From Micavibrio sp. (GTDB lineage: Bacteria; Pseudomonadota; Alphaproteobacteria; UBA9219): DNA of 64,000 bases. The stretch is taken from positions 6,124 to 70,123 of the forward strand of contig DYDA01000004.1 in NCBI GenBank assembly GCA_020718105.1, read 5' to 3'. The notes beneath the pieces were generated by a model. That model was not told the DNA's origin, searched no databases, and saw only the letters and a program-made list of their open reading frames with translations. The translations under genes were made by a program, and so were the position numbers. How positions within the stretch are numbered: position 1 is the first letter of the stretch; the number at the start of each line of letters is the position of its first letter. Below are positions 18,607-34,248 of this stretch, piece after piece.

Positions 18607-21036
18607 ATGACTCTTTTTGCTAAACATAAAATCAATTACCGCGATTTTATTCGCGATGTGCGCCCCGCCTCTGTGCGGATCAAGGAGTATTGGAACAAGC
18701 CCGATATTTTTGCGGCTGTTGCGATTATGGCTGTTATTGGCGTTTTAGCATCACCGGTTACGGCGGCTTGGAGTGATGCGATCCTTATCTTTATGATTTT
18801 TTATGCGCGTTGGGTTTTGCTTAAAACGTCGTTTGAACTTCCTTTGAAGATGCCGATGCAGGCCGCGCCCTTGCCCGATCCGCATAATCCTAAACCCGGA
18901 AAAGGCGGCGCAGGTAAGTCGGAAGGTATTTTATACCTTGGTAATTTGGATGAGGAAAAGCATCCGGAAAATGGGCGCGAGCTTTGGCTCACCAACGCCG
19001 ATGCCCGCACGCATATGTTGTTTTTGGGAACGACAGGTTCGGGCAAGACAGAGGGGCTTAAGTCGCTGGTCGCCAATTCTCTGACATGGGGATCGGGCTT
19101 CGTTTATGTTGATGGTAAGGCCGATACGGATTTGTGGGCCTCGCTTTATGCTTTGGTGCGGCGGTTTGGTCGCGACGATGATATTTTGGCGCTTAACTAC
19201 ATGACCGCGAACTCGGATAGCGGCGCGGTATCGAATACGATGAATCCGTTTTCCAACGGCTCTGCGTCTTATATCACCAACATGGTTGTTAGTTTGATGC
19301 CTGACGCAGGCGGCGATAACGCCATGTGGAAAGAACGTGCCGTGGCTTTGATGGGCGCGCTTATGCCCGCGCTGACGTGGAAGCGTGATCGCGGCGATAT
19401 CTTACTCGATGTCAGCGCTTTGCGCGATTACATTGAATTGCCCGCGATCATTCGCCTTTCGCGTGATCCTGATTTGCCAGAGCGCATTTTGCGTGGCCTG
19501 CAGGGGTATTTAACGACATTGCCAGGTTATATTGATGCGGCGTTTGATGACGAAGGAAACGAGAAGCCGCCTTCGCCCGATCAGCCCATGTATGATTTGC
19601 AAGTGGCGCGGCAACAACATGGCTATTTGTCCATGCAGTTTACGCGTTCCTTGCAATCACTGGCCGATGATTATGGTTATATTTTCCGCGCTCAATTGGC
19701 CGATGTCGATGTTTTGGATGTTGTCATCAATCGCCGCGTTCTTGTCGTTTTGATCCCTTCGCTTGAGAAATCGGGCGATGAAGCGGCAAACCTTGGTAAA
19801 ATCGTTGTGGCCAGCATGAAGGGCATGATGGGCGCGACGCTGGGCAACACGGTCGAAGGCAGTTGGGAAAGTGCGATTGGCAGCAAGCAAACGCGCTCAC
19901 AATCGTCGTTCATGGCCGTGTTTGACGAGGTGGGGTATTACACCGCGCCCGGTATGGCCGTGATGGCGGCGCAAGCGCGTTCCCTTGGATTCTCGCTCAT
20001 CTTTGCGGCGCAGGATTTGCCGTCGATGGAAAAACGCGTCAAGCAAGAGGCGCAGTCTATTTTGGCGAACTGTAACTTGAAGATTTTCGGCAAGATTGAA
20101 GACCCCGGTGACACGAAAAAGTTTTTTGAGGATCATGCAGGCTCGGAGTTCGTGATGGATGCCAGCGGCATGGAGGCAAGGCACGACACCGTTTCAAGTA
20201 TGTTTTTGTCGCATGCTTTTTATGACAACCATAAATCCACAGGCTTGCAGGTTCGTCCTCGCGCTGTTTATGATCATTTGCGTGGACAGCGTGAAGGCGA
20301 AGTCCATATGCTCTTCGCGCAGTATATCGTTCGTGCCCGTATGTTTTATGCTGTTCCGGATAGGGCGGGCGCTTTGCGGGTGCATAAACTTTTGCCCGTT
20401 CCTGCAACCACGGATCTGCTTAAGAATCGCGAACGGATCATCGCTGAGGTGGCCACGCGACTCAATGATTCGTCATGGACAGCGGCCAGTGCCGCGCCTG
20501 CACAAAAAACGCCGCCTGAAATTGCTGGCCTTGTTGCGGGGCTTGAGGCCGCTAAAGCTGCGGGGAAAACCGCTGTTGAGGCGGTCGCGGCGGCGGTCGG
20601 CGGATTGCCTAAGGTGGTCACGTCGCCTCAGCGTTTGTTTGAGGGGGATGATGGGACTGCGGCGGCTCCGGCGACAAGCGCTCATCCAAAAAGCGCCTCG
20701 TCAAAGAGCGGTGGCGGTGTCGGGAGTTCTGTCGTTATGCCGTGGGAGACGCCAGCGGGCGCGCCTTCGGCGCAGACGCCAACAGATGCGCCTTCAGCGC
20801 AGGGGGCCGAAGACTTGTTGGAATCTTTTGAGGAAAGCCCTATGGACGGGGTGGATACCAGCGGATTCCTTCCTCATGATCTTGATACCAGCATCGTGCC
20901 GCGTGTCGAGGTTGAGGGAGACGGCACGGACATCACAAAGTTAAAACTGCCCGATGACATGACGGCCTATCTTGAAAACATGGCAGATAAGCTGAACAAA
21001 GGGCTTGGCAGCGATGCCGCAAAGGATACGGATTAA
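18607..21036 (+). CDS. DotL/IcmO-like type IV coupling protein (VirD4/TraG family ATPase)
   Basis: 809 aa. N-terminal TM pair. Walker A LGTTGSGKTEGLKS and Walker B-like VFDEVGY. Long acidic, disordered C-terminal tail (EDLLESFEESPMDGVDTSGF...) resembling the adaptor-binding tail of DotL. Confidence 0.65.
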   Translation: MTLFAKHKINYRDFIRDVRPASVRIKEYWNKPDIFAAVAIMAVIGVLASPVTAAWSDAILIFMIFYARWVLLKTSFELPLKMPMQAAPLPDPHNPKPGKGGAGKSEGILYLGNLDEEKHPENGRELWLTNADARTHMLFLGTTGSGKTEGLKSLVANSLTWGSGFVYVDGKADTDLWASLYALVRRFGRDDDILALNYMTANSDSGAVSNTMNPFSNGSASYITNMVVSLMPDAGGDNAMWKERAVALMGALMPALTWKRDRGDILLDVSALRDYIELPAIIRLSRDPDLPERILRGLQGYLTTLPGYIDAAFDDEGNEKPPSPDQPMYDLQVARQQHGYLSMQFTRSLQSLADDYGYIFRAQLADVDVLDVVINRRVLVVLIPSLEKSGDEAANLGKIVVASMKGMMGATLGNTVEGSWESAIGSKQTRSQSSFMAVFDEVGYYTAPGMAVMAAQARSLGFSLIFAAQDLPSMEKRVKQEAQSILANCNLKIFGKIEDPGDTKKFFEDHAGSEFVMDASGMEARHDTVSSMFLSHAFYDNHKSTGLQVRPRAVYDHLRGQREGEVHMLFAQYIVRARMFYAVPDRAGALRVHKLLPVPATTDLLKNRERIIAEVATRLNDSSWTAASAAPAQKTPPEIAGLVAGLEAAKAAGKTAVEAVAAAVGGLPKVVTSPQRLFEGDDGTAAAPATSAHPKSASSKSGGGVGSSVVMPWETPAGAPSAQTPTDAPSAQGAEDLLESFEESPMDGVDTSGFLPHDLDTSIVPRVEVEGDGTDITKLKLPDDMTAYLENMADKLNKGLGSDAAKDTD

Positions 21037-21039
21037 ACG

Positions 21040-22071
21040 GTGCGTATCCTTCATATCATGGCTGGGCGGGGGCAGGGCGGTGCCGAAACCTATTCCGTTG
21101 ATATTATGTTGAGCCTTAAGGCCAGCGGGATTGATGGCCTTGCTGTGGTGGCGGGGGATGCTCCGCGTACGGCTGAATTACGTGCGGCGGGCGTGCGGGT
21201 TGAGACTGGCGTTTTAAGCCTTCCTTTTCGTTTTATTCAAAGATGGCGGCTTAAAAAACTTATAGAAAAAGAAAAGCCTGATTTAATCCATTGCTGGATG
21301 CGCCGCGCCGCCAGTTTATTGCCGCCTGATTTGTCTTGTCCTGTCATTGGGTGGTTCGGCGGTTATTACGATCCCAAAAACTTTAAGCGTTGCAGCCATT
21401 TTGTAGGGGTCACCAAAGACATCGTTGCGCATCAGGTTGCCAAGGGCGTGGCGGCGGACAAAGCTTTTTATGTGCCAACCTTTCCCGATGTGCGCGAGGA
21501 AAGCCCTGTGGACAGGGCCAGCCTTCAAACGGCGCCTTCCGCGCCCGTCGTGTTGGCGCTCTCGCGGTTGCACAAAAAGAAAGGGTTGGACACGCTCCTT
21601 TATGCGGCCAAGTTTGTGCCCGATGCCATTTTTTGGCTGGCTGGTGAGGGGCCTTTGCGAAGCGAGTTGGAAAAATTGAGCCGCAAGTTAGGGGTGGAAG
21701 CGCGTGTGCGGTTTTTGGGCTGGCGTACGGATCGTGGCGCTCTTTTGCGGTCGGCGAATGTCTGTGTTTTGCCTTCGCGCTATGAGCCTTTCGGAACGGT
21801 TATTTTAGAGGCGTGGGCGGCGGGAACGCCTTTGGTGGCAGCCAAAAGCGCAGGCCCTGCGGCTCATATTGATGATGGGAAAAATGGCCTTTTGGTTCCC
21901 ATTGATGATCCTGAAGCGTTGGGGAAGGCTCTTGCCCAAGCCTTAAAGGATGAGCCTTTGCGGCATCGGTTGATTGCGACGGGCTTTGATACTTATAGCC
22001 GTTCTTATACGCGTAAGGCGGTGACCGAGAAAATGATCGCGCTTTATAACAGGTTGATTTTGGCGGCCTAG
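21040..22071 (+). CDS. glycosyltransferase family 4 (GT-B, retaining)
   Basis: E-x7-E motif region EPFGTVILEAWAAGTPLVA. Typical RfaG/WcaL-like C-terminal domain. GTG start 4 nt after the DotL-like stop. Confidence 0.8.
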   Translation: MRILHIMAGRGQGGAETYSVDIMLSLKASGIDGLAVVAGDAPRTAELRAAGVRVETGVLSLPFRFIQRWRLKKLIEKEKPDLIHCWMRRAASLLPPDLSCPVIGWFGGYYDPKNFKRCSHFVGVTKDIVAHQVAKGVAADKAFYVPTFPDVREESPVDRASLQTAPSAPVVLALSRLHKKKGLDTLLYAAKFVPDAIFWLAGEGPLRSELEKLSRKLGVEARVRFLGWRTDRGALLRSANVCVLPSRYEPFGTVILEAWAAGTPLVAAKSAGPAAHIDDGKNGLLVPIDDPEALGKALAQALKDEPLRHRLIATGFDTYSRSYTRKAVTEKMIALYNRLILAA

Positions 22072-24926: not shown

Positions 24927-25199
24927 ATGATAAGCCATTATGATCTGGCGGGCTTGGTTGGCATGAGCCTTGGGCTTTATGCCTATGCTCGCCTTCAGTG
25001 GCAGCGTGAGTATGCGAAGCGGCTGTCTTATTCGCTTCTTAATGCCATTAACGCGTCACTGATGCTTTATTCCTTATCGAACAACTGGAATCTAGCCGCT
25101 TTTGTCAGCATGAGTATTTTTGGCTTGCTCAGCCTTTATGGCGTGTATCGCTGCCTTAAATATCGCTGGAGCGAAAATCAAGCAGCCAAAAGCCCATAA
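24927..25199 (+). CDS. small membrane protein, hypothetical
   Basis: 90 aa with two predicted TM helices. No motif recognised. Confidence 0.3.
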   Translation: MISHYDLAGLVGMSLGLYAYARLQWQREYAKRLSYSLLNAINASLMLYSLSNNWNLAAFVSMSIFGLLSLYGVYRCLKYRWSENQAAKSP

Positions 25200-26650
25200 G
25201 CGTACCAGCCCACCAAGCCTCGCGCCGCAACATCCGTGATGATGTTGTGAACCATCTCATCCGTCGGGGTGGTAGTATCCATGATTTTTGCGGCGAGCGC
25301 TGGATTCTTTTGCACAAGGCGTTGGAGCTCTGGCAGAAGCGCTCCGGCGGAAAGAGAAAGCCCGACGCGATGAATGGCTTGTAGAACCAAGGCGTCGCGG
25401 GCGCTTAGCGTTAGGGATTCTCCAACAATAGAAGAGGCAAGGCGCACCGAGGGGCTGGCAATCGTTGTGTCTGTAAGATAACTGTTGAAGGCGGTCGCCC
25501 AAGCGGGCGCTCGGTGGCTGTTGTCAATTTTGCCTTCATAGTGCGTGCGCATGGGCTGGGCAATGCCACAGGCAACAAGAACATGAATGGCGGCGACGAC
25601 TTCGTCTTGATCCATGCCGTGTCCCGCCGGATGGTTTAAAAAGTCACCGATGCCGACAGGCAAGGTGCACATAAGATCGATAAGGCGCATAAAGAGGGGG
25701 GTCGCAAAGCTGATGGTTCCGCCTTGCGTGGTGTGCGTCGTGGGAACGCGATCCTTGGGTGTGGTAATGCCAAAGGTAAACCGCCCGAACAGCGCCGCCG
25801 GATCGGCGGTTTGCTCGGCGGGACGTTTGACCCAAATGTCGTTTCGGAAAAGACGCTGAAGCGCAAAATCTTTGATGGGTTCGTAAAGAAGATGCTCACG
25901 GCATTGGCTTAAGGTTTCATGCGAAGACGTGGGCGCGGCCAGCTCAAGATAGTTCGCGCCGTAATCGGCATCGCCGACAAAAGAAAAATCACGGGGCAAC
26001 AGGCCTGCCATCGTCTCTAAGGTGCCAGAGGGGCTTTCGCCAACGCTGCCGCAAAGATCAAAGAAGGAGTCTGGTGTTTGCGCGACAATGGCTTTTTCCA
26101 AAGCCGCCTGCGCGATGGGGTGATCGGTGAAATAGGAAACGCCAAGCGTTTTGATTTCGGTGAGAAATTCTTGCGCTTGCACGGCTGTCATCTCTGGCGC
26201 GTATTCCTTGATAAGGAAGCTGAGGGATTCATCGGCGTTGTTATAGGCGCGGTAGCGATAGGCCAGAAGGCCACTTGCGGCCAGATGGTTTTGGGCTAAG
26301 GCAAAAAGGGCTTCTCTCTCTTGCGCTGTAGCGACAGTTTCTGTTTGATCGCAGCATAGATAGGTGAGGCTTGTCGGGAGCTGTTCATTCTTGGCAACAA
26401 AAGTGACGTTGGTAACTTTTTTGGCAAGCGCCATAGCTTGCGCGGCATCGACTTCGTCGCCTTTTACGCCATAAAAAAGGCCTTGCGGGTTGCTGGCAGC
26501 CAAACACAAGAAGGCGTCAAGATCGAAGCCCCCCGTTTGGGCATAAAGGAAAGAGCTTTCGGGGTTGATCGGCAACACGCCCCGTAAGGCGGCGACATAA
26601 TTCAGGCGAACGGGGCTAAGGTCAAAAGCAGGCGCTGTGGCATAAAACAT
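25178..26650 (-). CDS. hypothetical protein (490 aa)
   Basis: Long clean ORF. No signal peptide and no catalytic motif recognised by eye. Possibly a methyltransferase-regulatory-like domain, unverified. Confidence 0.4.
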   Translation of the reverse strand: MFYATAPAFDLSPVRLNYVAALRGVLPINPESSFLYAQTGGFDLDAFLCLAASNPQGLFYGVKGDEVDAAQAMALAKKVTNVTFVAKNEQLPTSLTYLCCDQTETVATAQEREALFALAQNHLAASGLLAYRYRAYNNADESLSFLIKEYAPEMTAVQAQEFLTEIKTLGVSYFTDHPIAQAALEKAIVAQTPDSFFDLCGSVGESPSGTLETMAGLLPRDFSFVGDADYGANYLELAAPTSSHETLSQCREHLLYEPIKDFALQRLFRNDIWVKRPAEQTADPAALFGRFTFGITTPKDRVPTTHTTQGGTISFATPLFMRLIDLMCTLPVGIGDFLNHPAGHGMDQDEVVAAIHVLVACGIAQPMRTHYEGKIDNSHRAPAWATAFNSYLTDTTIASPSVRLASSIVGESLTLSARDALVLQAIHRVGLSLSAGALLPELQRLVQKNPALAAKIMDTTTPTDEMVHNIITDVAARGLVGWYAYGLLAA

Positions 26651-26676: not shown

Positions 26677-27651
26677 TTAAAGATATCGAAGAATGGAAAG
26701 TTTGATCAAGTTTGACACGGCAGAATAGGACGCCTCAAGCTGAGCTTGCAGCGTTGTAATTTTAACGGCGACCTCGTTCATGTCAACACCTTCAATGGTG
26801 TCTACCTGATCTTTCAGGCTTGTTATTTTTGACGAGATGTTGGTTTTGGCTTTGGTCAGGGTTGAGGCGGCGTTGACAGAATCCGTATGTGTGGCGCGGG
26901 TGTTGGCAAGCCCCGTTGAAATAAGATTGCGCGCTGTGGTCATATAGGTTTCATAGTTGGTTGGATCCTGCGTCGCGGCATAGGCAAAACGCAGCCCCAT
27001 AATCAATTGCTGAAAGCCATCTTCATTGCTGGTCACGCCATAGGTTAGTTTTTTTGTCGTGTCGATAGAGGTTTGTTCATTAATGTTGGCCTCTGGGACA
27101 AGGGCTGTCGGAGCGAGAGGATCGTAATCTGTATCGTAGGCCGGAACGGCATCGCCTGTCGCCAAATAGGGAGTAACTTCGGTCGGTGGAACGGGAAGCG
27201 CCATGAGGTCGCCCACGGGCGCTTGGCCATAACGGCTGCCCGAAAAAATAAAACGATCCCCCACTTGTTGGTTCAAGTAATAGGACATTTGTTCCATGTA
27301 GCCCTCAATCTGACTGGCGAGGGAGGCGTTTGTCGTGCTGTTATAGGTGGAGGCGCTGGAAACAGAGGTAAACGCTTCGGAGGCTGTGTCTTCGATGGAC
27401 GTCATCGCGCTGTTATAAACTTCCATGCGCGGCGAAATAGACTCGATGACGTTGAGAAAGCCTTTTTGCTGTACAACCTCGCTGTTGAAATTAAGCAGTT
27501 TTTGCGCGCTGGCAGAGGAATAGTCCGTTAGGTTGGAAGAATACTTGCCCGTCGTCAATTGCTCTGACAATTTCGAGAGCAAGGTTTGCCCCGACGTCAG
27601 ATTTTTCGTGCTTGAAAGATTAAGGCCCATTGTGCTGATGGAATCGACCAT
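26677..27651 (-). CDS. flgL: flagellar hook-associated protein 3 FlgL (flagellin-fold)
   Basis: Immediately downstream of flgK on the same strand. Flagellin-like N- and C-terminal helical segments (C-terminus LQAQLEASYSAVSNLIKLSIL). Ser/Thr-rich variable middle. Confidence 0.5.
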   Translation of the reverse strand: MVDSISTMGLNLSSTKNLTSGQTLLSKLSEQLTTGKYSSNLTDYSSASAQKLLNFNSEVVQQKGFLNVIESISPRMEVYNSAMTSIEDTASEAFTSVSSASTYNSTTNASLASQIEGYMEQMSYYLNQQVGDRFIFSGSRYGQAPVGDLMALPVPPTEVTPYLATGDAVPAYDTDYDPLAPTALVPEANINEQTSIDTTKKLTYGVTSNEDGFQQLIMGLRFAYAATQDPTNYETYMTTARNLISTGLANTRATHTDSVNAASTLTKAKTNISSKITSLKDQVDTIEGVDMNEVAVKITTLQAQLEASYSAVSNLIKLSILRYL

Positions 27652-27664
27652 GCGGAAGCGTCCT

Positions 27665-29425
27665 TTATAAAAGCTGCTCTAGCGTTGTGAAAAGTTCTTT
27701 GACAACGGACATAACGTGCGCCGATGCCGCATAAGCATTTTGAAGCGTGGTGAGATTGACAAGCTCGTTATCGACGTTAACGCCTGTCTCGTTGGTGTAG
27801 CGTTCCTCAAGATAGGCTCGCGCATCTTCGGCTGTCGTGTTGAGGGTTGAAATATTGTTGGCGGCCTGTTGAAACGATGTGAGGCTGGATGTTGCCAAGG
27901 ATGTATAGTTTGAATTGGCGACACTAAGACCATCGGTGGTAAAGGCTCGCGTTGAATCCAGAAGCGCATCTGTCACAAGAGACGCTGCGGCGGCTTTGGC
28001 GGTTGCTGTGCCATTAAGGAGGGAGGCGTTGACGGCAAAGGTTGTGCGATCCGTTCCCGTGAAGAAATCCGTGGAAAGCTCGCCCGCTTGAACGGGAACG
28101 ATAATGCTATGCCCGCCGGACAGCTGATAGGCAGGCACAGAGGGAAGCGTCAGCGTTGTTGGATCGAGATTACCGGTTCCATTGATGGCCGATGTTACAA
28201 GCGTGGAGGGCGCGGCAGTGATGGCGGCGGCCAGATTGGTCCAAAGATCGTGCGTTCCCGGCACGGCGCCGTCAGAGAGATTGTCGTAAACTTCTGTTGT
28301 GGTTCCATCGGTAATCGTCGCCATATAGTTGCCGATGTTTATGGGATCGTCAGCCAGCGTGATGGTAATGCTGTTTCCTGACGAGCCGGAATTAACGGCG
28401 GTAAAGGCCAACGCGTTCGTCAACGTCGTCGTCGCAAAGGTCACATCGGGAAGAGAATTGTAGGCCGTTGCAAAAGTAACCTCGCCTGACGTGGCTGACG
28501 TTGTCAGAGTCGTAAAGGCTGAGACGATGGTGTCAAGCTGGCTGCGCATTTTTTGGATGACGTTTGTCGCAGGATCGGTGCTGACGGTCACGGTGGTGGC
28601 GCGAAAATTGACCAACGCGTCAAGCGTGCCGCCGCTGAGCGCGCTGTTGAGGGAAAGGGTTGTGTTGGCCGTTGAGGTGATGTTCGTTCCGTCATAGGTA
28701 AACGTGCGAGCTGAGGATCCATCAACAAGCTGATAGCCTGTGGCGGTATAAAGCGCGATTTGGCCAAAATCTCTGTCCAGAACGGTGACGCCCGTTAGTT
28801 CAGAAACCTTGAGGATCAACTGATCGCGTTGATCTTGAAGGTCGCCAGAGGAAAGGTTAGAGGTTGTCGCTTGCGCGATTTTTTGGTTGATGTCTTTGAT
28901 TTGGTCAAGATATGCGTTGAGGTCAGAAACGGTGCTGCTGATATCGTTAGAGCATTGACGATCAAGCGATTCTATTTCCGATGCGATACGCTGAACCTCA
29001 TCCGCAAAGGTTGAGGCATCTTGCACGACTTGACGCTTGGCCACCAAGCTTTCCGGAGAGGCGGCCAAATCTTTCCATGCGTTGATAAAGTTTGACATCG
29101 CCGTTGTCAGGGTTGGCGAGTCGCTGGCGCTTGTGCCAAGGATGTCTTGGATTTGTTGAAGATAGTCGTTTTGTGTTGAGCGCAAGGAGGCGCTGGAGGT
29201 TGCTCTTGTGAGTGTCGTATAGAGGGCGCTGTTTTCTGCGCGCGTGAATCCCGCCACGCTAACGCCGCCACCAACGGCGCCAAGCGTTGCCGGTGACAGT
29301 GTGGCTTTTTTGGTCGTATAGCCTGTCGTGGCCGCGTTCGAGATGTTGCTGGCCGTCAACTCAAGCTGCGTTGACGTCGCTTGAATCCCTGAAAGCGAAA
29401 TGGTGAGGGCTGAGGCGAGAGACAT
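27665..29425 (-). CDS. flgK: flagellar hook-associated protein 1 FlgK
   Basis: N-terminus MSLASALTISLSGIQATSTQLELTASNISNAATTGYT and C-terminus LTTLQNAYAASAHVMSVVKELFTTL match the FlgK rod/hook-family termini. Confidence 0.8.
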   Translation of the reverse strand: MSLASALTISLSGIQATSTQLELTASNISNAATTGYTTKKATLSPATLGAVGGGVSVAGFTRAENSALYTTLTRATSSASLRSTQNDYLQQIQDILGTSASDSPTLTTAMSNFINAWKDLAASPESLVAKRQVVQDASTFADEVQRIASEIESLDRQCSNDISSTVSDLNAYLDQIKDINQKIAQATTSNLSSGDLQDQRDQLILKVSELTGVTVLDRDFGQIALYTATGYQLVDGSSARTFTYDGTNITSTANTTLSLNSALSGGTLDALVNFRATTVTVSTDPATNVIQKMRSQLDTIVSAFTTLTTSATSGEVTFATAYNSLPDVTFATTTLTNALAFTAVNSGSSGNSITITLADDPINIGNYMATITDGTTTEVYDNLSDGAVPGTHDLWTNLAAAITAAPSTLVTSAINGTGNLDPTTLTLPSVPAYQLSGGHSIIVPVQAGELSTDFFTGTDRTTFAVNASLLNGTATAKAAAASLVTDALLDSTRAFTTDGLSVANSNYTSLATSSLTSFQQAANNISTLNTTAEDARAYLEERYTNETGVNVDNELVNLTTLQNAYAASAHVMSVVKELFTTLEQLL

Positions 29426-29459
29426 GCTCCTTCTATCCTTTGTAAGAGGACATCATCCG

Positions 29460-31115
29460 TTACCGGATGATGTTGATCGCTTCTTGCATCATGTTGTTGG
29501 TTGTCGTGATCGTTTTGGCGTTGGCCGAATAGACTTGCTGCGCTTGGATGAGTTTTGTGAACTCGTCCGCGATATCGACGTTCGAGCCTTCCAGCGCGTT
29601 GCCGACAATCGTGCCCGCGCCGTTGGTTCCCGGAGAGCTGTAACGCGCTGAACCGGAGGCTAGCGTTTGTTCATACGCGCCGCCCGTGACGCGTTGCAGC
29701 TTATCTTGAGCGAAAAACTGAACAACAGGGATTTGCGCGATCGTGCGCGTGCGCCCGTTATCGTAGTTCAGCGCGACATACCCGTTTGCATCGATCGAAA
29801 GACTTTGGAACGAACCGCGAGGGATACCGTTTTGATCAAAGGTTGTCACCGACACGGTTGTGTCGTCAAACTGCGTCACGCCTTTGGACATATCATAGGT
29901 GCCAAAATCGACGGTGACCGTTTGGGATCCTGCGCCTGCAAAATCAAGACTAAAGCTAACCTCGGCTTTGTTTTCAACGGCGGCTGTATTATCGACAACC
30001 GTATATGATTCAGCGGCTGCGCCTCCGGCAAGGTTATAGGTGGCGGGAAGCGTTAAGGTTGAGGGGGCAAGATTGCCCGTTCCGTTGGTGGTTGCGCCAA
30101 CAAGCGTGGACGGGAGCGCCGCAATCGCGGCGTCCAAGTTTGTCCAAAGGGCGTTGGCTGGTAGGTTTGTGACATCGGTATAGGTTTCCGTCGTCGTGCC
30201 GTTTGTGATGGTGACGGTATAGAGATTGGCTGCAGAACCTGCCGCAATGGTGACATCGATATTGTTGCCCGCGACCCCTGTCGCAAGCGCCGTAAAGTCA
30301 AGACCGTTGGTGATGGCTACCGTGGACGCTACCGCTGCCGAAGCTGCGCCGATAGAATCGATCGTACCGGCGTTGGTTGTGTCGTTAAAGGAAAAGGGCA
30401 TCGTGACGTCATAATCCGTATAGGTCGGTGGCGTGCCGCCGTCCGAGATAGCGTCTGGAACAACAACGTGAAGGCTCCATTCGCTCGTTGCTGTTTTCGT
30501 CCAAGCAAAGGTCATGTCGTGCGCGCCGCCCAGCGAATCATAAACTTGAATGGTGGAGGGAGAGGAAACGAAATTAACGTCCTCGCTTGATGGAAGGTTG
30601 GCAGCATAATCGACAGCCGATGTTCCAACGGGATTGTCCAACAAATCGGACAAACGAATAGGATCGGCAGAGGATGTGTCAACAACGCCATTAAGATCGA
30701 CGGTATAGCCTGTTAAATAGTATCCGCCGCCGTTGACGAGAAAGCCGCTTTTATCAAGATTAAAATCGCCGGAGCGGGTGAAGTAGGTGGTGTTGCCGAA
30801 CGTCGTCGTACCATCCGCGCCGACAACGGCTGGACGAACGGGGAAGAACCCTTGACCTGAAATGGCCAGCGCCGTCGCGTTGGAGGACTGAACAAGGTTG
30901 CCTTGCTCACTGTTCGTGTAATAAGGCGTGGCGCGCACGCCGCCCGGATCGTTGGCGAACTGGTTGGATTGGGTGACCAGCGATTCAAAACGCGTTTCAA
31001 TGGCCTTGAACCCTGTTGTTTGTGAGTTGGCCAAATTATCGGAAATGTTGCCGATAGATGCCGATTGGGCCGTAAGGCCGCCGACGGCGACCTGCATAGC
31101 TGCGTAGAGAGACAT
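29460..31115 (-). CDS. flgE: flagellar hook protein FlgE
   Basis: Start moved to MSLYAAMQVAVGGLTAQSASIGNISDNLANSQTTGFK (ATG at 31115), which matches the FlgE N-terminal consensus. C-terminus LIQAQQVYSANAKTITT is the hook-family C-terminal motif. Confidence 0.85.
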   Translation of the reverse strand: MSLYAAMQVAVGGLTAQSASIGNISDNLANSQTTGFKAIETRFESLVTQSNQFANDPGGVRATPYYTNSEQGNLVQSSNATALAISGQGFFPVRPAVVGADGTTTFGNTTYFTRSGDFNLDKSGFLVNGGGYYLTGYTVDLNGVVDTSSADPIRLSDLLDNPVGTSAVDYAANLPSSEDVNFVSSPSTIQVYDSLGGAHDMTFAWTKTATSEWSLHVVVPDAISDGGTPPTYTDYDVTMPFSFNDTTNAGTIDSIGAASAAVASTVAITNGLDFTALATGVAGNNIDVTIAAGSAANLYTVTITNGTTTETYTDVTNLPANALWTNLDAAIAALPSTLVGATTNGTGNLAPSTLTLPATYNLAGGAAAESYTVVDNTAAVENKAEVSFSLDFAGAGSQTVTVDFGTYDMSKGVTQFDDTTVSVTTFDQNGIPRGSFQSLSIDANGYVALNYDNGRTRTIAQIPVVQFFAQDKLQRVTGGAYEQTLASGSARYSSPGTNGAGTIVGNALEGSNVDIADEFTKLIQAQQVYSANAKTITTTNNMMQEAINIIR

Positions 31116-31294
31116 GAAACACCTCAGTCGTTGGATAAAACTCATAAGGGTATCAGCAAGAGATGTGCCAAAGTGCAAGCTGTTGAAAACAATTAAAATT
31201 AAGGAGAGATAAGGAGGGGTTTCTTGCCGAGCCTCGGCACTTCTTGCCTTATGCGTAGGGCTGGGCAAAAAACGAAGGCATTGACAAGAAGGGG

Positions 31295-31339
31295 GAACCA
31301 AAGTAGAACAAAAAACCCCCTTTTGTTCTACTTTGGCTC
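31295..31339. promoter_or_regulatory. LexA operator(s), alphaproteobacterial GTTC-N7-GTTC type, upstream of lexA
   Basis: GAACcaaagtaGAAC at 31295-31309 is a perfect direct-repeat box. GTTCtactttgGCTC at 31325-31339 is an imperfect inverted copy 15 nt downstream. Both lie ~35-75 nt upstream of the lexA ATG. Confidence 0.6.
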
Positions 31340-31369: not shown

Positions 31370-32071
31370 ATGTTGACCCGTAAGCAAAAAGAAATCCTCC
31401 TTCTAATCCGTGACCGTTTGGCCAGCGATGGCGTTCCCCCTTCGTTTGATGAAATGAAGGAAGCTTTGGGCTTGCGCTCAAAATCAGGCATTCACCGATT
31501 GATTTCGGGGCTGGAGGAGCGGGGCTTTATCCGTCGCTTGCCGCATCGGGCGCGGGCGTTGGAAATCATCAAGCTTCCCGAAGGCAGCGAAGCTAAGGGA
31601 GTCAAAGGGGTTCGCAAAGCTCGCGCTGTGGCGGGGGCTTTGGTTGAACAAGCCGCACAGGTGGCCTCTACTCTTCTCAGTCTGCCGCTTTATGGGCGCA
31701 TCGCGGCGGGCACGCCAATTGAGGCGATCAGCGACGTGCAAAACCATCTTGAAATCCCCCCCTCGCTTCTCTCCAACATCAAGGGCAATGTGGCGGGCGA
31801 GCATTACGCGCTGGAAGTCGCGGGCGATTCAATGATCGAGGCGGGCATCATGGATGGCGATCATGTCATCATTCGTCGCGCCGATACGGCCCACAATGGT
31901 GCGATCGTTGTGGCGCTGGTTGATGAGAATGAAGCGACGCTCAAGTATTTTGAAAAGCGCAAAGAGGGCATAGCCCTTATCCCCGCGAATGAGCGGTATG
32001 AAACGCGCCTCCTCAACCCCTCGCGGATTAAGGTGCAGGGGACGTTGGTGGGGTTGGTGCGGAAGTATTAG
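31370..32071 (+). CDS. lexA: LexA repressor
   Basis: N-terminal winged HTH ([17 protein letters not shown]...[30 protein letters not shown]). C-terminal S24 peptidase with GDSM Ser and the downstream catalytic Lys. Confidence 0.9.
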
Positions 32072-34248
32072 AGACTCTCTGCTCCAGCGTTGGCTTTTGG
32101 GTTCTTTTCTGCGGGATTCCACCCCACGGACCAAGGGCGAAGGTGGCCTTTCGTGCGGACGGTATCGATGCGAACCGTGTCGTTTTTCTCAAAGGTCAGC
32201 GTGTGAGCGCCACCTTTGGCTAACGCGGCTTGATCGATCATAATCGTCTGGGGGCATGGCGGCATCGGCACAAAGGCAACCGTCACGGTCGTTGTGGGGC
32301 AGGCAGGCGGCGTGGCGGATGTTGTTTCCTGACCCTTGGGCGGGGGCATTAGAAACATGATGGACAGGTTGCCCTTTTCATAAAGGCAATGTGTTTCATC
32401 ACAAAAAAGGTCTTTGTCGAATTCGGGAAGATGTTTGGCCGAGAAATAGGCAATATCGGGATTGCCGCCGTGTTGCCTCCACTGCGCAATGGTGAAATTT
32501 TCCTCGCGCTTACCAAAGGCGGCCATGGTGCCATCGCTCAGGCGCACCGCCCAAACAGGGGCGTCGGCAGCGATAAAAACATCGGGCTGCGTGACGGTGA
32601 GTGGATAGAAGAAAACGGCGGCGATGGGCAGAAGCCCCGCATAGCGCCAGCGCTTTCGCCACAGGCAAAGCCACAGCCCGCCCGCGAGAAAAGAAAAAAG
32701 CGCCCATGGTGGCATAGGGGGCAAATAGATTTGAGCCAAGGGCCATGAGGCTACTTGTTCAGCCAGCACAATGATTCCTTTGACCCCCCATCCTGCCGCG
32801 TCGATGAACCAGCCGCTCGCGCCAAAGGGGGCTGTGATATAGGTCAAGAGCAAGAAAGGCATCACCCACAGCGTTGTCAGCGGAATGGCGATGATGTTGG
32901 CAATCACGCCGTAAAAATTAAAGGACTGAAAATGAAAAAGCGTGAAAGGCGTCGTGGCTGCCGTGGCAATGAGTGAGGTAAGAACGATATCCTTTAAGTG
33001 CCGCCATAAGGGGGCAAGCCGATGATGTGGCGTTGGTACGTTTTTCTTTTCTGTAAGGCTCCATCCGTCTTTAAGAAGAACGTCCAGTTGTTTTTCATAA
33101 ACGGCGACCATGGCCAGCACCGCCGCGAAGGACATTTGAAAGCTTGCCCCCATCGCGGCGCTGGGGGTTATCAGCATAATGGCGATGGCCGCCAAAGCGA
33201 CAAGGCGAAGGCTAAGCGCTTTGCGATCCATGATAACGGCCAGCATGATGAGCGCGGTCATAAGGGCTGAGCGCACCGTGGGCGCGTCTGCGCCTACCAA
33301 AAGCGTGTAGAGGCTTGTTGCGATGATGGCCGCGCTTGCCGCTCCTTTTTTGATGGAAAAGCGTAGGGCAATCCATGGAAAGAGCGCCAACAAAAAGCGC
33401 AAGGGGACATAAACCAACAGGGCCATCATGCTAACATGCACGCCGGAAATGGAAAGCAGGTGGGAGAGGCCAGAGGCACGCATGGCTTGCATAGAGTCTT
33501 GATCGATGGCGGTTTGACTGCCTGATAGCAGGGCGGCGGTCATGGCTTTTTCTTTGATTTGCTCCGGTGAGCTCAGGCGATCAAAGGTCATGAGGATCAA
33601 GGCGCGACGCGCCTTTTCGAACATCAAATAGAAGCCGTCCCAAAAGAAGCGAAGAGGGTAAAGCGACTCTCTTTCGCGTAACTCAACATAGGATAACCCC
33701 GTCGCTCCAATTTGCTTGAAAAAGGCTTGCCGCCGGAAATCATAGCCGTCCGGAAGCGCGGGGTCGGCGGGGGGCCAAAGGGGGCCCCACAGATTAACGC
33801 GGCTTCCGACTTCGGGCAGGTCGGTAAAAGGCGTTCTGACTTTTACGCGCAGGAGGCGGGGACGATCCTCTTTGGGCACGTTTTTGATGGACGGGGATTT
33901 AAGCGTTAGGCGTGATCCTTCGGGCAGCGCTTCAGCTCGGATCAAGGTTCCCGTTATGGATGTCGGCTCTAGCTTCGTATCGAGAAGCGGTTTTTTGATC
34001 TGGGCAGTTTCAAACTGCGCCGCATTAAAGCCTAAGGAAAAGGCAAGCAAGCAGGCTAAAACGGGGGACAGAATGGCGTTGTGGCGCAGCAACAGAAAGC
34101 CTGTCAGAAAAAAGGGGGCAGCAAGGCAGACGGAAAAGGGAGGCTCAAAAGGCAGGGCAAAATAGACGATAATTCCGCAGACCATAAAGACAGGAGTCCA
34201 TAAGAACCAGCGTTCGCGTTCGTCTAAAAGGGATTGAAATGGGTTCAC
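32068..34248 (-). CDS. comEC: ComEC/Rec2-family DNA internalization competence protein
   Basis: 726-aa polytopic membrane protein. N-terminal DUF4131-like region and central competence-domain TM bundle. Conserved lexA-comEC-gltX neighbourhood of alphaproteobacteria. Confidence 0.7.

Follow-up and report, generated by a model that had tools for sequence, protein, structure and literature searches.

A contractile-tail sheath-type domain inserted in the hook and hook-filament junction proteins of a Micavibrio-like bacterium

The flgE-flgK-flgL locus and a segment common to FlgE and FlgK

The window, the analysed 64-kb stretch of DNA from a predatory, Micavibrio-like bacterium, contains the flagellar genes flgE, flgK and flgL, which adjoin one another on the minus strand. 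They belong to the locus lexA-flgE-flgK-flgL-PF10119, which is conserved across relatives. No phage tail genes are found in the neighbourhood of flgE and flgK, and no flagellar glycosylation gene was identified beside the locus. The genes and the inserted segments discussed below are:

29460..31115, minus strand: flgE, flagellar hook protein, 551 aa, start codon ATG at 31115
30021..30326, minus strand: sheath-type module in FlgE, aa 264-365, inserted in domain D2
27665..29425, minus strand: flgK, hook-associated protein 1 (hook-filament junction), 586 aa, assigned from Pfam and NCBIfam
28112..28429, minus strand: sheath-type module in FlgK, aa 333-438, delimited by BLASTP and by an indel relative to the FlgK of locus L006
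26677..27651, minus strand: flgL, hook-associated protein 3, 324 aa, directly after flgK, with Pfam Flagellin_C

FlgE is 100% identical to a database protein of 551 aa (P0020) and contains the Pfam domains Flg_bb_rod, LlgE_F_G_D1, FlgE_D2 and Flg_bbr_C (PF00460, PF22692, PF07559 and PF06429). It passes the NCBIfam model TIGR03506 with 265 bits (cut-off 70.25), while its score against the FlgE equivalog NF004242 (345 bits) lies slightly below the cut-off of 365, the match being split by the insertion. Its sequence, with a rod motif, D1, D2, a C-terminal rod domain and agreement with the FlgE/F/G subfamily model, identifies it as FlgE. A mechanical list of open reading frames stretches the start of this gene to a TTG at 31301. 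FlgK matches FlgK_D1 (PF22638, 1.8e-40) as well as Flg_bb_rod (PF00460) and Flg_bbr_C (PF06429), and passes TIGR02492 (252 bits, cut-off 170.75); the helical D1, the axial-protein termini and the equivalog model mark it as FlgK. FlgL scores under the cut-offs of both the FlgL and the flagellin models of NCBIfam.

Comparison of FlgE with FlgK by BLASTP returned a single significant segment, FlgE 263-364 and FlgK 331-438, in which 55 of 109 positions are identical (50%; 84 bits, E 2e-21 with composition-based statistics). The preliminary description of this DNA had proposed that the central segments of the two proteins are homologous, and the alignment bears this out; the module is ~102-106 aa long, not ~80 aa as was then estimated. 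The segments missing from module-less homologues are aa 259-364 in FlgE (window 30024-30341; P0031 is a natural allele of this kind) and, relative to the 468-aa FlgK of L006, aa 325-446 in FlgK (window 28088-28453).

Both modules are compositionally biased, with 19-22% Thr, 12-18% Ala and neither Lys nor Arg, which could favour a chance likeness between two Thr/Ala/Ser-rich low-complexity variable regions. The similarity nevertheless survives SEG masking (tblastn, E 2e-14), as the preliminary description had demanded of a true homology. The Smith-Waterman score between the modules is 230, as against 47 +/- 8 (maximum 82, z = 22) for 2000 composition-preserving shuffles of the FlgK module, and the top non-module 105-aa window among FlgE, FlgK and FlgL reaches 60. 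A confident globular fold is predicted for the segment, and an exhaustive HMM search recovered it from dozens of proteins, each time as a separate unit. Shuffling and masking thus rule out chance similarity, to which we attach practically no probability. The window contains no third copy of the module in a SEG-masked tblastn search of its 64 kb, and in the same stretch flgL is without it.

Relationship to the outer domain of contractile-tail sheaths

The module is predicted to be a compact, autonomously folding domain of ~100 residues, consisting of a beta-sandwich and one long helix. The model reproduces the three-dimensional fold of the peripheral 'additional' domain of contractile-tail sheaths, represented in Pfam by PF17481 (Phage_sheath_domII). 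At the level of profiles, the FlgE module of the window scores 14.5 bits against PF17481 (E 0.05), less than the gathering score of 31.4 bits, and the FlgK module gave no match at the reporting limit of E<=1. Scores of relatives extend to the threshold: 32.2 for the FlgL P0007, 31.1 for the sheath protein P0017, 27.9 for P0014 and 26.7 for the FlgK P0002. A profile built from 43 module sequences matches the sheath of phage 812 in the PDB (E 3e-4); the search from the two window sequences alone gave no match there.

Intermediate sequences connect the two groups. The domain occurs in PHROG-23 tail sheath proteins of eleven IMG/VR contigs (L013-L023) and of contig L005; the PHROG-23 assignment was checked for three of the IMG/VR open reading frames (E down to 1.8e-49) and for P0012 on L005 (E 4e-23). 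The IMG/VR contigs were matched by a scan with the module of the phage protein P0012, and a viral-contig scan with the two window modules matched none. Domain II of the phage sheaths scores 65-105 bits against the HMM of flagellar modules (L005, 105.6), where the FlgK module of the window scores 98-104 bits. Identity between sheath domains and flagellar modules reaches 54%; between the FlgE module of the window and the L016 domain it is 47%. Judged from these sequences, the module is in direct continuity with a bona fide tail sheath domain, and fold, profile and intermediate sequences together assign it, by both sequence and fold, to the family of the PF17481 additional domain, with the outer domains of phage tail sheaths as its nearest kin.

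The domain is a member of this family, yet its hosts are not sheaths. PF17481 additional domains are known from phiCD508 gp55, the H. borinquense CIS sheath, DSY3957/Lin1278 and the protease-resistant fragment of T4 gp18. In contrast to these sheath domains, the window copies score below the Pfam threshold, and rather than in a sheath subunit encoded beside tube, baseplate and tape-measure genes they reside in FlgE and FlgK, type-III-secreted axial proteins of the hook and junction whose assembly is non-contractile. In the searchable literature on PF17481, and on tail sheaths together with FlgE or FlgK, we found no description of this arrangement. In a neighbour-joining tree of the modules, drawn without support values, the phage sequences form a clade nested among the flagellar ones; by parsimony, the transfer may have run from phage to flagellum.

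Distribution, divergence and selection

Homologues were gathered by exhaustive HMM search and by a search with full-length FlgE. A word-indexed search gave no match for a two-module alignment and one fragment for a 34-module alignment, the biased composition defeating the word index. Two apparent members, the invasin P0019 with its Big_1 repeats and the short-repeat protein P0013, were dismissed as spurious matches to a two-sequence profile. The number of copies in related genomes ranges from 0 to 2 in FlgE, 0 to 3 in FlgK and 0 to 4 in FlgL, distributed as follows (FlgE/FlgK/FlgL):

Window, L001 and L002: 1/1/0
L003: 1/2/2
L004: 1/3/0
L006 and L012: 0/0/0
L009: 1/0/0
L010: 2/2/4
L011: 2/3/0

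Orthologues of flgL carry one to four modules in L003 (2), L010 (4) and the proteins P0001, P0005, P0007, P0009, P0010 and P0015, and at least six insertion sites are used across the flagellar genes of relatives. Modules also travel in pairs: the FlgK and FlgL of L003 have a common two-module cassette (66% and 68% identity in register), as do the FlgE P0008 and the FlgK P0002. Three copies of the domain occur in P0014, a surface-type protein of 2612 aa that contains Big_2. The sheath outer domain identity (PF17481-type fold), the occurrence in FlgL and the tandem arrays of relatives had escaped the preliminary description.

The earlier supposition that FlgE and FlgK do not normally contain the module holds up well. 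It is missing from about three-quarters of the closest FlgE homologues; FlgE proteins with a core ~88% identical to that of the window lack exactly these 106 residues, and in the syntenic locus L006 both FlgE and FlgK are devoid of it. Among homologues, presence and absence of the module show as clean indels in FlgE and in FlgK. Its frequent absence from close relatives indicates that the module is dispensable for basic hook function. On the tree of FlgE cores its distribution is patchy and requires at least 12 changes of state. In relatives the three neighbouring flagellar genes have gained, multiplied and lost it time and again. A generic flagellin D2/D3-like domain in all hook-family proteins of the clade had been named as a finding that would undo the proposal, and a rival reading is an ancestral flagellar outer domain, flagellin D2/D3-like or FlgE D2-like, that descended vertically in all axial proteins of the clade. 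The module does not resemble flagellin and is missing from part of the clade, which leaves this explanation very improbable.

The preliminary description further held that the likeness is visible in the DNA and reflects exchange or duplication between the hook and junction genes. At the nucleotide level it is marginal: 59% of aligned codon positions and 37% of third positions are identical, the same codon is used at 18 of 54 identical residues, dS is ~3 (saturated) with a dN of 0.36, and a repeat finder returned one 18-nt fragment. With so few third positions conserved and a lone short repeat, the DNA resemblance is a by-product of amino-acid conservation and not of recent exchange. Within the Micavibrio clade, the module tree joins FlgE and FlgK copies as mutual closest relatives, in keeping with a duplication inside the genome or a transfer from one flagellar gene to another; over the window, L001 and L002, FlgE copies cluster with FlgE and FlgK copies with FlgK. 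The homology and kinship of the copies therefore stand, and a recent date does not: the dS and the orthology of each copy across three genomes argue for an ancient duplication.

Recent or ongoing gene conversion, homogenizing flgE and flgK in concerted evolution, would draw on the adjacency and common orientation of the genes. It would also be in keeping with a C-terminal half that is 67-73% identical between FlgE and FlgK, compared with 27-50% for the N-terminal part, and with the clade-specific motif NGTGNL(D/A)P(S/T)TLTLP, common to both copies and to the FlgL copies of P0001. We reject this explanation as highly unlikely on account of the codon divergence, the grouping of copies by gene and the lack of any long DNA repeat joining the two modules in the repeat search; selection on the protein accounts better for the conservation of the C-terminal patch. 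A self-mobile element (IS/MITE, intein or homing cassette) was likewise discarded, as the repeat search revealed no flanking repeats at either module and the insert consists entirely of a structural domain. Among orthologues, omega is 0.08-0.13 for the modules compared with 0.025-0.044 for the FlgE core, and the nonsynonymous rate of the modules is 3-4 times that of the core. On this sequence evidence, both window copies are held by purifying selection.

Placement on the flagellum and possible history and role

Sheath subunits and the axial proteins of the flagellum both build the inner core of the polymer from their N- and C-terminal parts, with inserted domains turned outward; the radial order of the hook is D0, D1, D2. 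The FlgE module interrupts a loop of domain D2 in frame, and that of FlgK is placed in the corresponding non-helical middle region. By analogy with the hook order, the module most likely occupies an outward position, and since inserted domains of both protein classes face outward, it is likely displayed outside the hook and the first junction ring. The flagellum of Micavibrio is single, polar and sheathless (PMC3189940). The additional domains of sheaths sit away from the tube and are dispensable for assembly and contraction (PMC9230969).

The best functional analogy is offered by the D3/D4 domains of Campylobacter and Helicobacter FlgE, which are lineage-specific insertions like the module and lie beyond D2 on the hook exterior, where the module too would be displayed; in Campylobacter these extra domains add strength to the hook (PMC5097172). 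The module resembles the epsilonproteobacterial D3/D4 insertions in neither fold nor sequence. The hypervariable outer domains of flagellin and FliD offer a further parallel, being surface-exposed and fast-evolving and coming and going as insertions flanked by conserved terminal helices; no fold similarity was found between the module and solved outer (D2/D3) domains of flagellin or cap proteins.

We consider it probable that the hook and junction have taken up a sheath outer domain as an outward-facing decoration that they can do without. The domain would have come from a phage sheath gene and entered a flagellar gene in a Micavibrio-like alphaproteobacterial lineage. Illegitimate recombination may then have copied it between the neighbouring flgE, flgK and flgL in cassettes of one or two modules, with whole alleles passing between strains by homologous recombination. 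The window copies would then be products of an old duplication, both kept by purifying selection. As an outer structural or protective layer, the module could supply extra contacts between subunits and make the structure more robust, as D3/D4 do for the Campylobacter hook, and/or hide the conserved surface of the hook. Its role may lie in stiffening, shielding or adhesion, and a near-neutral decoration is possible.

Instead of a passive layer, the module could be a specific binding module. It might act as an adhesin towards prey or surfaces, serve as a glycosylation target or carrier, or be contacted by phages with the same sheath domain; the preliminary description had suggested that it could create a shared surface epitope or a glycosylation domain. 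Surface display is likely, the sequence is Thr-rich, the domain occurs in triplicate in the surface-type P0014, and adsorption roles have been proposed for additional domains of sheaths (PMC9230969). Rapid changes in copy number and the raised nonsynonymous rate are also expected of an interface that faces antagonists. Against this, no ligand and, in the conserved locus, no glycosyltransferase is found, the omega of about 0.1 gives no overall sign of positive selection, and the hook and junction make up a tiny share of the flagellar surface and thus a poor site for an adhesin. On balance, we regard a dedicated binding function as unlikely.

The recruited decoration might, somewhat speculatively, form a continuous outer sleeve, a protein coat made from a part of the contractile-tail sheath. 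Carrying the same phage-derived domain, FlgE and FlgK (and FlgL in relatives) could be covered from the hook through the hook-filament junction by homotypically interacting modules, with the copy number tuned in each lineage by the mechanical load of predatory attack or by phages; related myophages, which display the domain on their own sheaths, could take part in the same arms race as donors or hook binders. Such a sleeve is conceivable, although we would not expect it.

Contractile phage tails and the bacterial flagellum, two unrelated helical nanomachines, appear to have an exchangeable outer building block in common. The locus offers a natural example of how outer domains may enter flagellar axial proteins: an insertion domain that coats a phage tube appears to have been grafted into surface loops and then copied between neighbouring hook and junction genes. 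The module may also lend itself to use as a portable scaffold with which other domains could be displayed on the hook. Natural alleles with 0-4 copies at six sites provide a ready system for studying the effects of outer domains on hook and junction mechanics, and the same series could reveal how much decoration flagellar export and assembly tolerate.

The shared module of FlgE and FlgK

FlgE and FlgK are encoded in the window by genes that are co-oriented with flgL, with lexA and comEC upstream and a PF10119 gene downstream.

Genes of the flagellar locus and its flanks
25178–26650, minus strand: PF10119 gene (490 aa), directly after flgL
26677–27651, minus strand: flgL, by position and sub-threshold FlgL/flagellin models
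27665–29425, minus strand: flgK, with FlgK_D1 (Pfam, 1.8e-40) and TIGR02492 (NCBIfam)
29460–31115, minus strand: flgE, with rod, D1, D2 and C-terminal domains (Pfam) and TIGR03506 (NCBIfam)
31370–32071, plus strand: lexA
32068–34248, minus strand: comEC

Both FlgE (TIGR03506, 265 bits) and FlgK (TIGR02492, 252 bits) score above the NCBIfam cut-offs, giving a solid sequence-based family assignment; that of FlgL, made from its position and sub-threshold models, is weaker. The start of flgE is the ATG at 31115 (551 aa, MSLYAAMQ...) in all homologues, including the 100% identical database protein P0020. The mechanical open reading frame (613 aa) begins at a TTG at 31301, adding the stretch 31116–31301. 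The organism is Micavibrio-like: its best genomic match is a Micavibrio aeruginosavorus MAG, whose FlgE is 96% identical. Micavibrio, an obligate epibiotic predator, expresses its one polar, sheathless flagellum in the attack phase (PMC3189940).

Residues ~263–364 of FlgE align with residues ~331–438 of FlgK over 109 columns at ~50% identity (84 bits, E 2e-21 with compositional adjustment). This match establishes the homology proposed in the preliminary description, as it withstands both SEG masking (E 2e-14, tblastn) and shuffling: the Smith–Waterman score of the module pair is 230, compared with 47 ± 8 (maximum 82) for 2000 shuffles of the FlgK segment (z = 22). Other 105-residue windows of FlgE, FlgK and FlgL reach at most 60, and tblastn found no third copy in the 64-kb window. 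The unit comprises 102–106 residues, somewhat more than the ~80 originally suggested. It is most conserved in its C-terminal half (67–73% between the two copies), which consists of a helix, LWTNLxAAI, and a clade-specific loop, NGTGNLxPxTLTLP. The similarity noted earlier at the DNA level is present but modest, with 59% identity over aligned codons (63%, 77% and 37% at positions 1, 2 and 3) and the same codon at 18 of the 54 identical residues; dN is 0.36 and dS ~3 (NG86). A repeat finder detected one 18-nt fragment as the only repeat between the two module DNAs, and no direct or inverted repeats flanking them.

Lysine and arginine are absent from all 102 residues of the FlgE module (30021–30326) and all 106 of the FlgK module (28112–28429), and threonine makes up 19–22%. 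Each basic residue accounts for 2–3% of the rest of FlgE and FlgK, and both occur in the related phage sheath domains.

A dispensable insertion in three flagellar genes

The module is a discrete and dispensable accessory insertion. Only 27 of 118 close FlgE homologues carry it, in one to three copies; the others measure 429–476 aa. Two 445-residue homologues, P0031 and P0036, are 88% and 85% identical to the window FlgE in the common parts and lack exactly residues 259–364. At the syntenic locus L006, FlgE has 445, FlgK 468 and FlgL 324 aa, and its FlgK aligns to the window FlgK with one clean gap, corresponding to window residues 325–446. Copy numbers at this and other flagellar loci of relatives reveal that the module was inserted and multiplied repeatedly in three adjacent genes.

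Module copies per flagellar locus
Window, L001, L002: FlgE 1, FlgK 1, FlgL 0
L003: FlgE 1, FlgK 2, FlgL 2
L004: FlgE 1, FlgK 3, FlgL 0
L009: FlgE 1, FlgK 0, FlgL 0
L010: FlgE 2, FlgK 2, FlgL 4
L011: FlgE 2, FlgK 3, FlgL 0
L006, L012: FlgE 0, FlgK 0, FlgL 0

Mapped onto module-less references, the insertions fall at two points per protein: ~244 and ~296 in FlgE, ~332 and ~383 in FlgK, and ~160 and ~185 in FlgL. On a neighbour-joining tree of the FlgE core, computed like the module tree without support values, at least 12 changes are required among the states none, site A and site B, and module-less alleles stand directly beside the window clade. The module tree unites the window, L001 and L002 copies from FlgE and FlgK in a single clade that also holds the FlgL copies of P0001. 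Within it, FlgE copies group with FlgE and FlgK copies with FlgK; the E/K split therefore predates these genomes, in agreement with the saturated dS, and the duplication is old. Larger units recur as well. The two FlgK modules of L003 match its two FlgL modules in register (66% and 68%), a two-module cassette is common to FlgE P0008 and FlgK P0002, again in register, and FlgL P0007 has an ABAB arrangement. Between orthologues, omega is 0.08–0.13 for the module (purifying) versus 0.025–0.044 for the FlgE core, with nonsynonymous change 3–4 times faster in the module. Both copies are kept by selection.

A different insertion of ~80–170 aa, not matched by the module HMM, occupies the same D2 region in the FlgE proteins P0111, P0113 (526 aa) and P0124 (610 aa). 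In this clade, the D2 loop seems to act as a general hot spot for the entry of foreign domains.

Kinship with phage tail sheaths

The window copies match sheath families weakly (PF17481 Phage_sheath_domII, E 0.05; tail sheath PHROG 279, E 0.02), and precomputed annotations give PF17481 only as 'faint', on two relatives. Several other module-bearing proteins lie near or above the PF17481 threshold (P0007, 32.2 bits; cut-off 31.4). A 43-module profile run against the PDB found the phage 812 tail sheath (E 3e-4) and, more weakly, other sheaths. From a 34-sequence alignment, AF2 gave a confident model of the FlgE module (pLDDT 93.8, pTM 0.85) with seven strands and a single long helix, and sheath proteins ranked top in Foldseek searches of both the PDB and predicted viral structures. 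The predicted fold is thus of the sheath type.

An exhaustive HMM search over 1.84 billion representative proteins returned 19, two of which were spurious and were removed from the family. The flagellar matches were FlgL-like proteins with 1–4 copies, FlgK with 2–3 and FlgE with 1–2; the phage matches were two tail sheaths, P0012 and P0017 (three copies). A 2612-aa Big_2 protein (P0014) has three tandem copies and a 385-aa DUF1217 protein (P0018; PF06748, 2.2e-38) has one, indicating that the module has also been grafted beyond sheath subunits and FlgE, FlgK and FlgL.

The relationship to domain II of real phage sheaths is close and extends beyond a common fold. P0012 (tail sheath PHROG 23, 4e-23) adjoins a tape-measure gene on a phage-like contig, and scanning viral contigs with its module recovered eleven IMG/VR contigs that carry the module in tail sheaths of 512–756 aa; the three checked belong to PHROG 23 (E down to 1.8e-49). 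Domain II of these sheaths scores 65–104 bits against the flagellar-module HMM, which is the range of the flagellar modules themselves. Phage and flagellar modules are up to 54% identical (median 40%, versus 42% among flagellar modules); sheath P0017 and P0014, which are more distant, stand at 30%. Compared with the sheath domain of the IMG/VR contig L016, the window FlgE module shows 47% identity, not far below the ~50–51% to its own FlgK paralogue. On L005, the contig of P0012, a phage sheath gene (1371–2939) is apparently split by a frameshift or an assembly error.

Possible role and neighbouring genes

D2 is the outermost FlgE domain in solved hooks. Because the insertions lie in D2 and the additional domains of sheaths are situated away from the tube (PMC9230969), the module is probably displayed outward. 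Transfer probably ran from phage to flagellum, since the sheath domain is widespread, from T4 to archaeal systems, and is confined in flagella to one narrow bacterial clade. The architecture accounts for the success of the graft: in both sheath and flagellar polymers, the inner core is formed by the chain termini, so a surface loop can accept a domain with an evolutionary past as an insert, and assembly is left undisturbed. For the role, the Campylobacter hook offers the best analogy: its extra domains D3 and D4 add robustness (PMC5097172). Although these are unrelated to the module, both are extra hook domains, and the module may likewise contribute structural robustness; a shielding or adhesive role is the alternative.

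Lineage-specific outer domains of flagellar proteins and the sheath domain family were already known. We found no description of a sheath domain in hook or junction proteins in the searchable literature; the combination of a domain common to these and contractile-tail sheaths with its shuffling among flgE, flgK and flgL appears to be new.

In some relatives, the downstream side of the flagellar locus is closely followed by Wzy_C (O-antigen ligase/O-oligosaccharyltransferase-like) and metallophosphoesterase genes (L009 13474–14883; L011 8651–9621), which are absent from this place in the window. Dot/Icm-type T4SS genes (DotH/IcmK, DotI/IcmL) occur near the same locus on L008 and L009. At a distance of ~5 kb from its flagellar genes, the window encodes a TraG/TrwB-like type IV secretion coupling protein (18607–21036) and a GT4 glycosyltransferase (21040–22071), and then pta and ackA. 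The order lexA–flgE–flgK–flgL–PF10119 is the same in relatives with flanking sequence available. PF10119, a 'methyltransferase regulatory domain', follows flgL in every relative locus that is long enough (L006, L007, L009–L012), with or without modules, and its protein may be a modifier of flagellar proteins.
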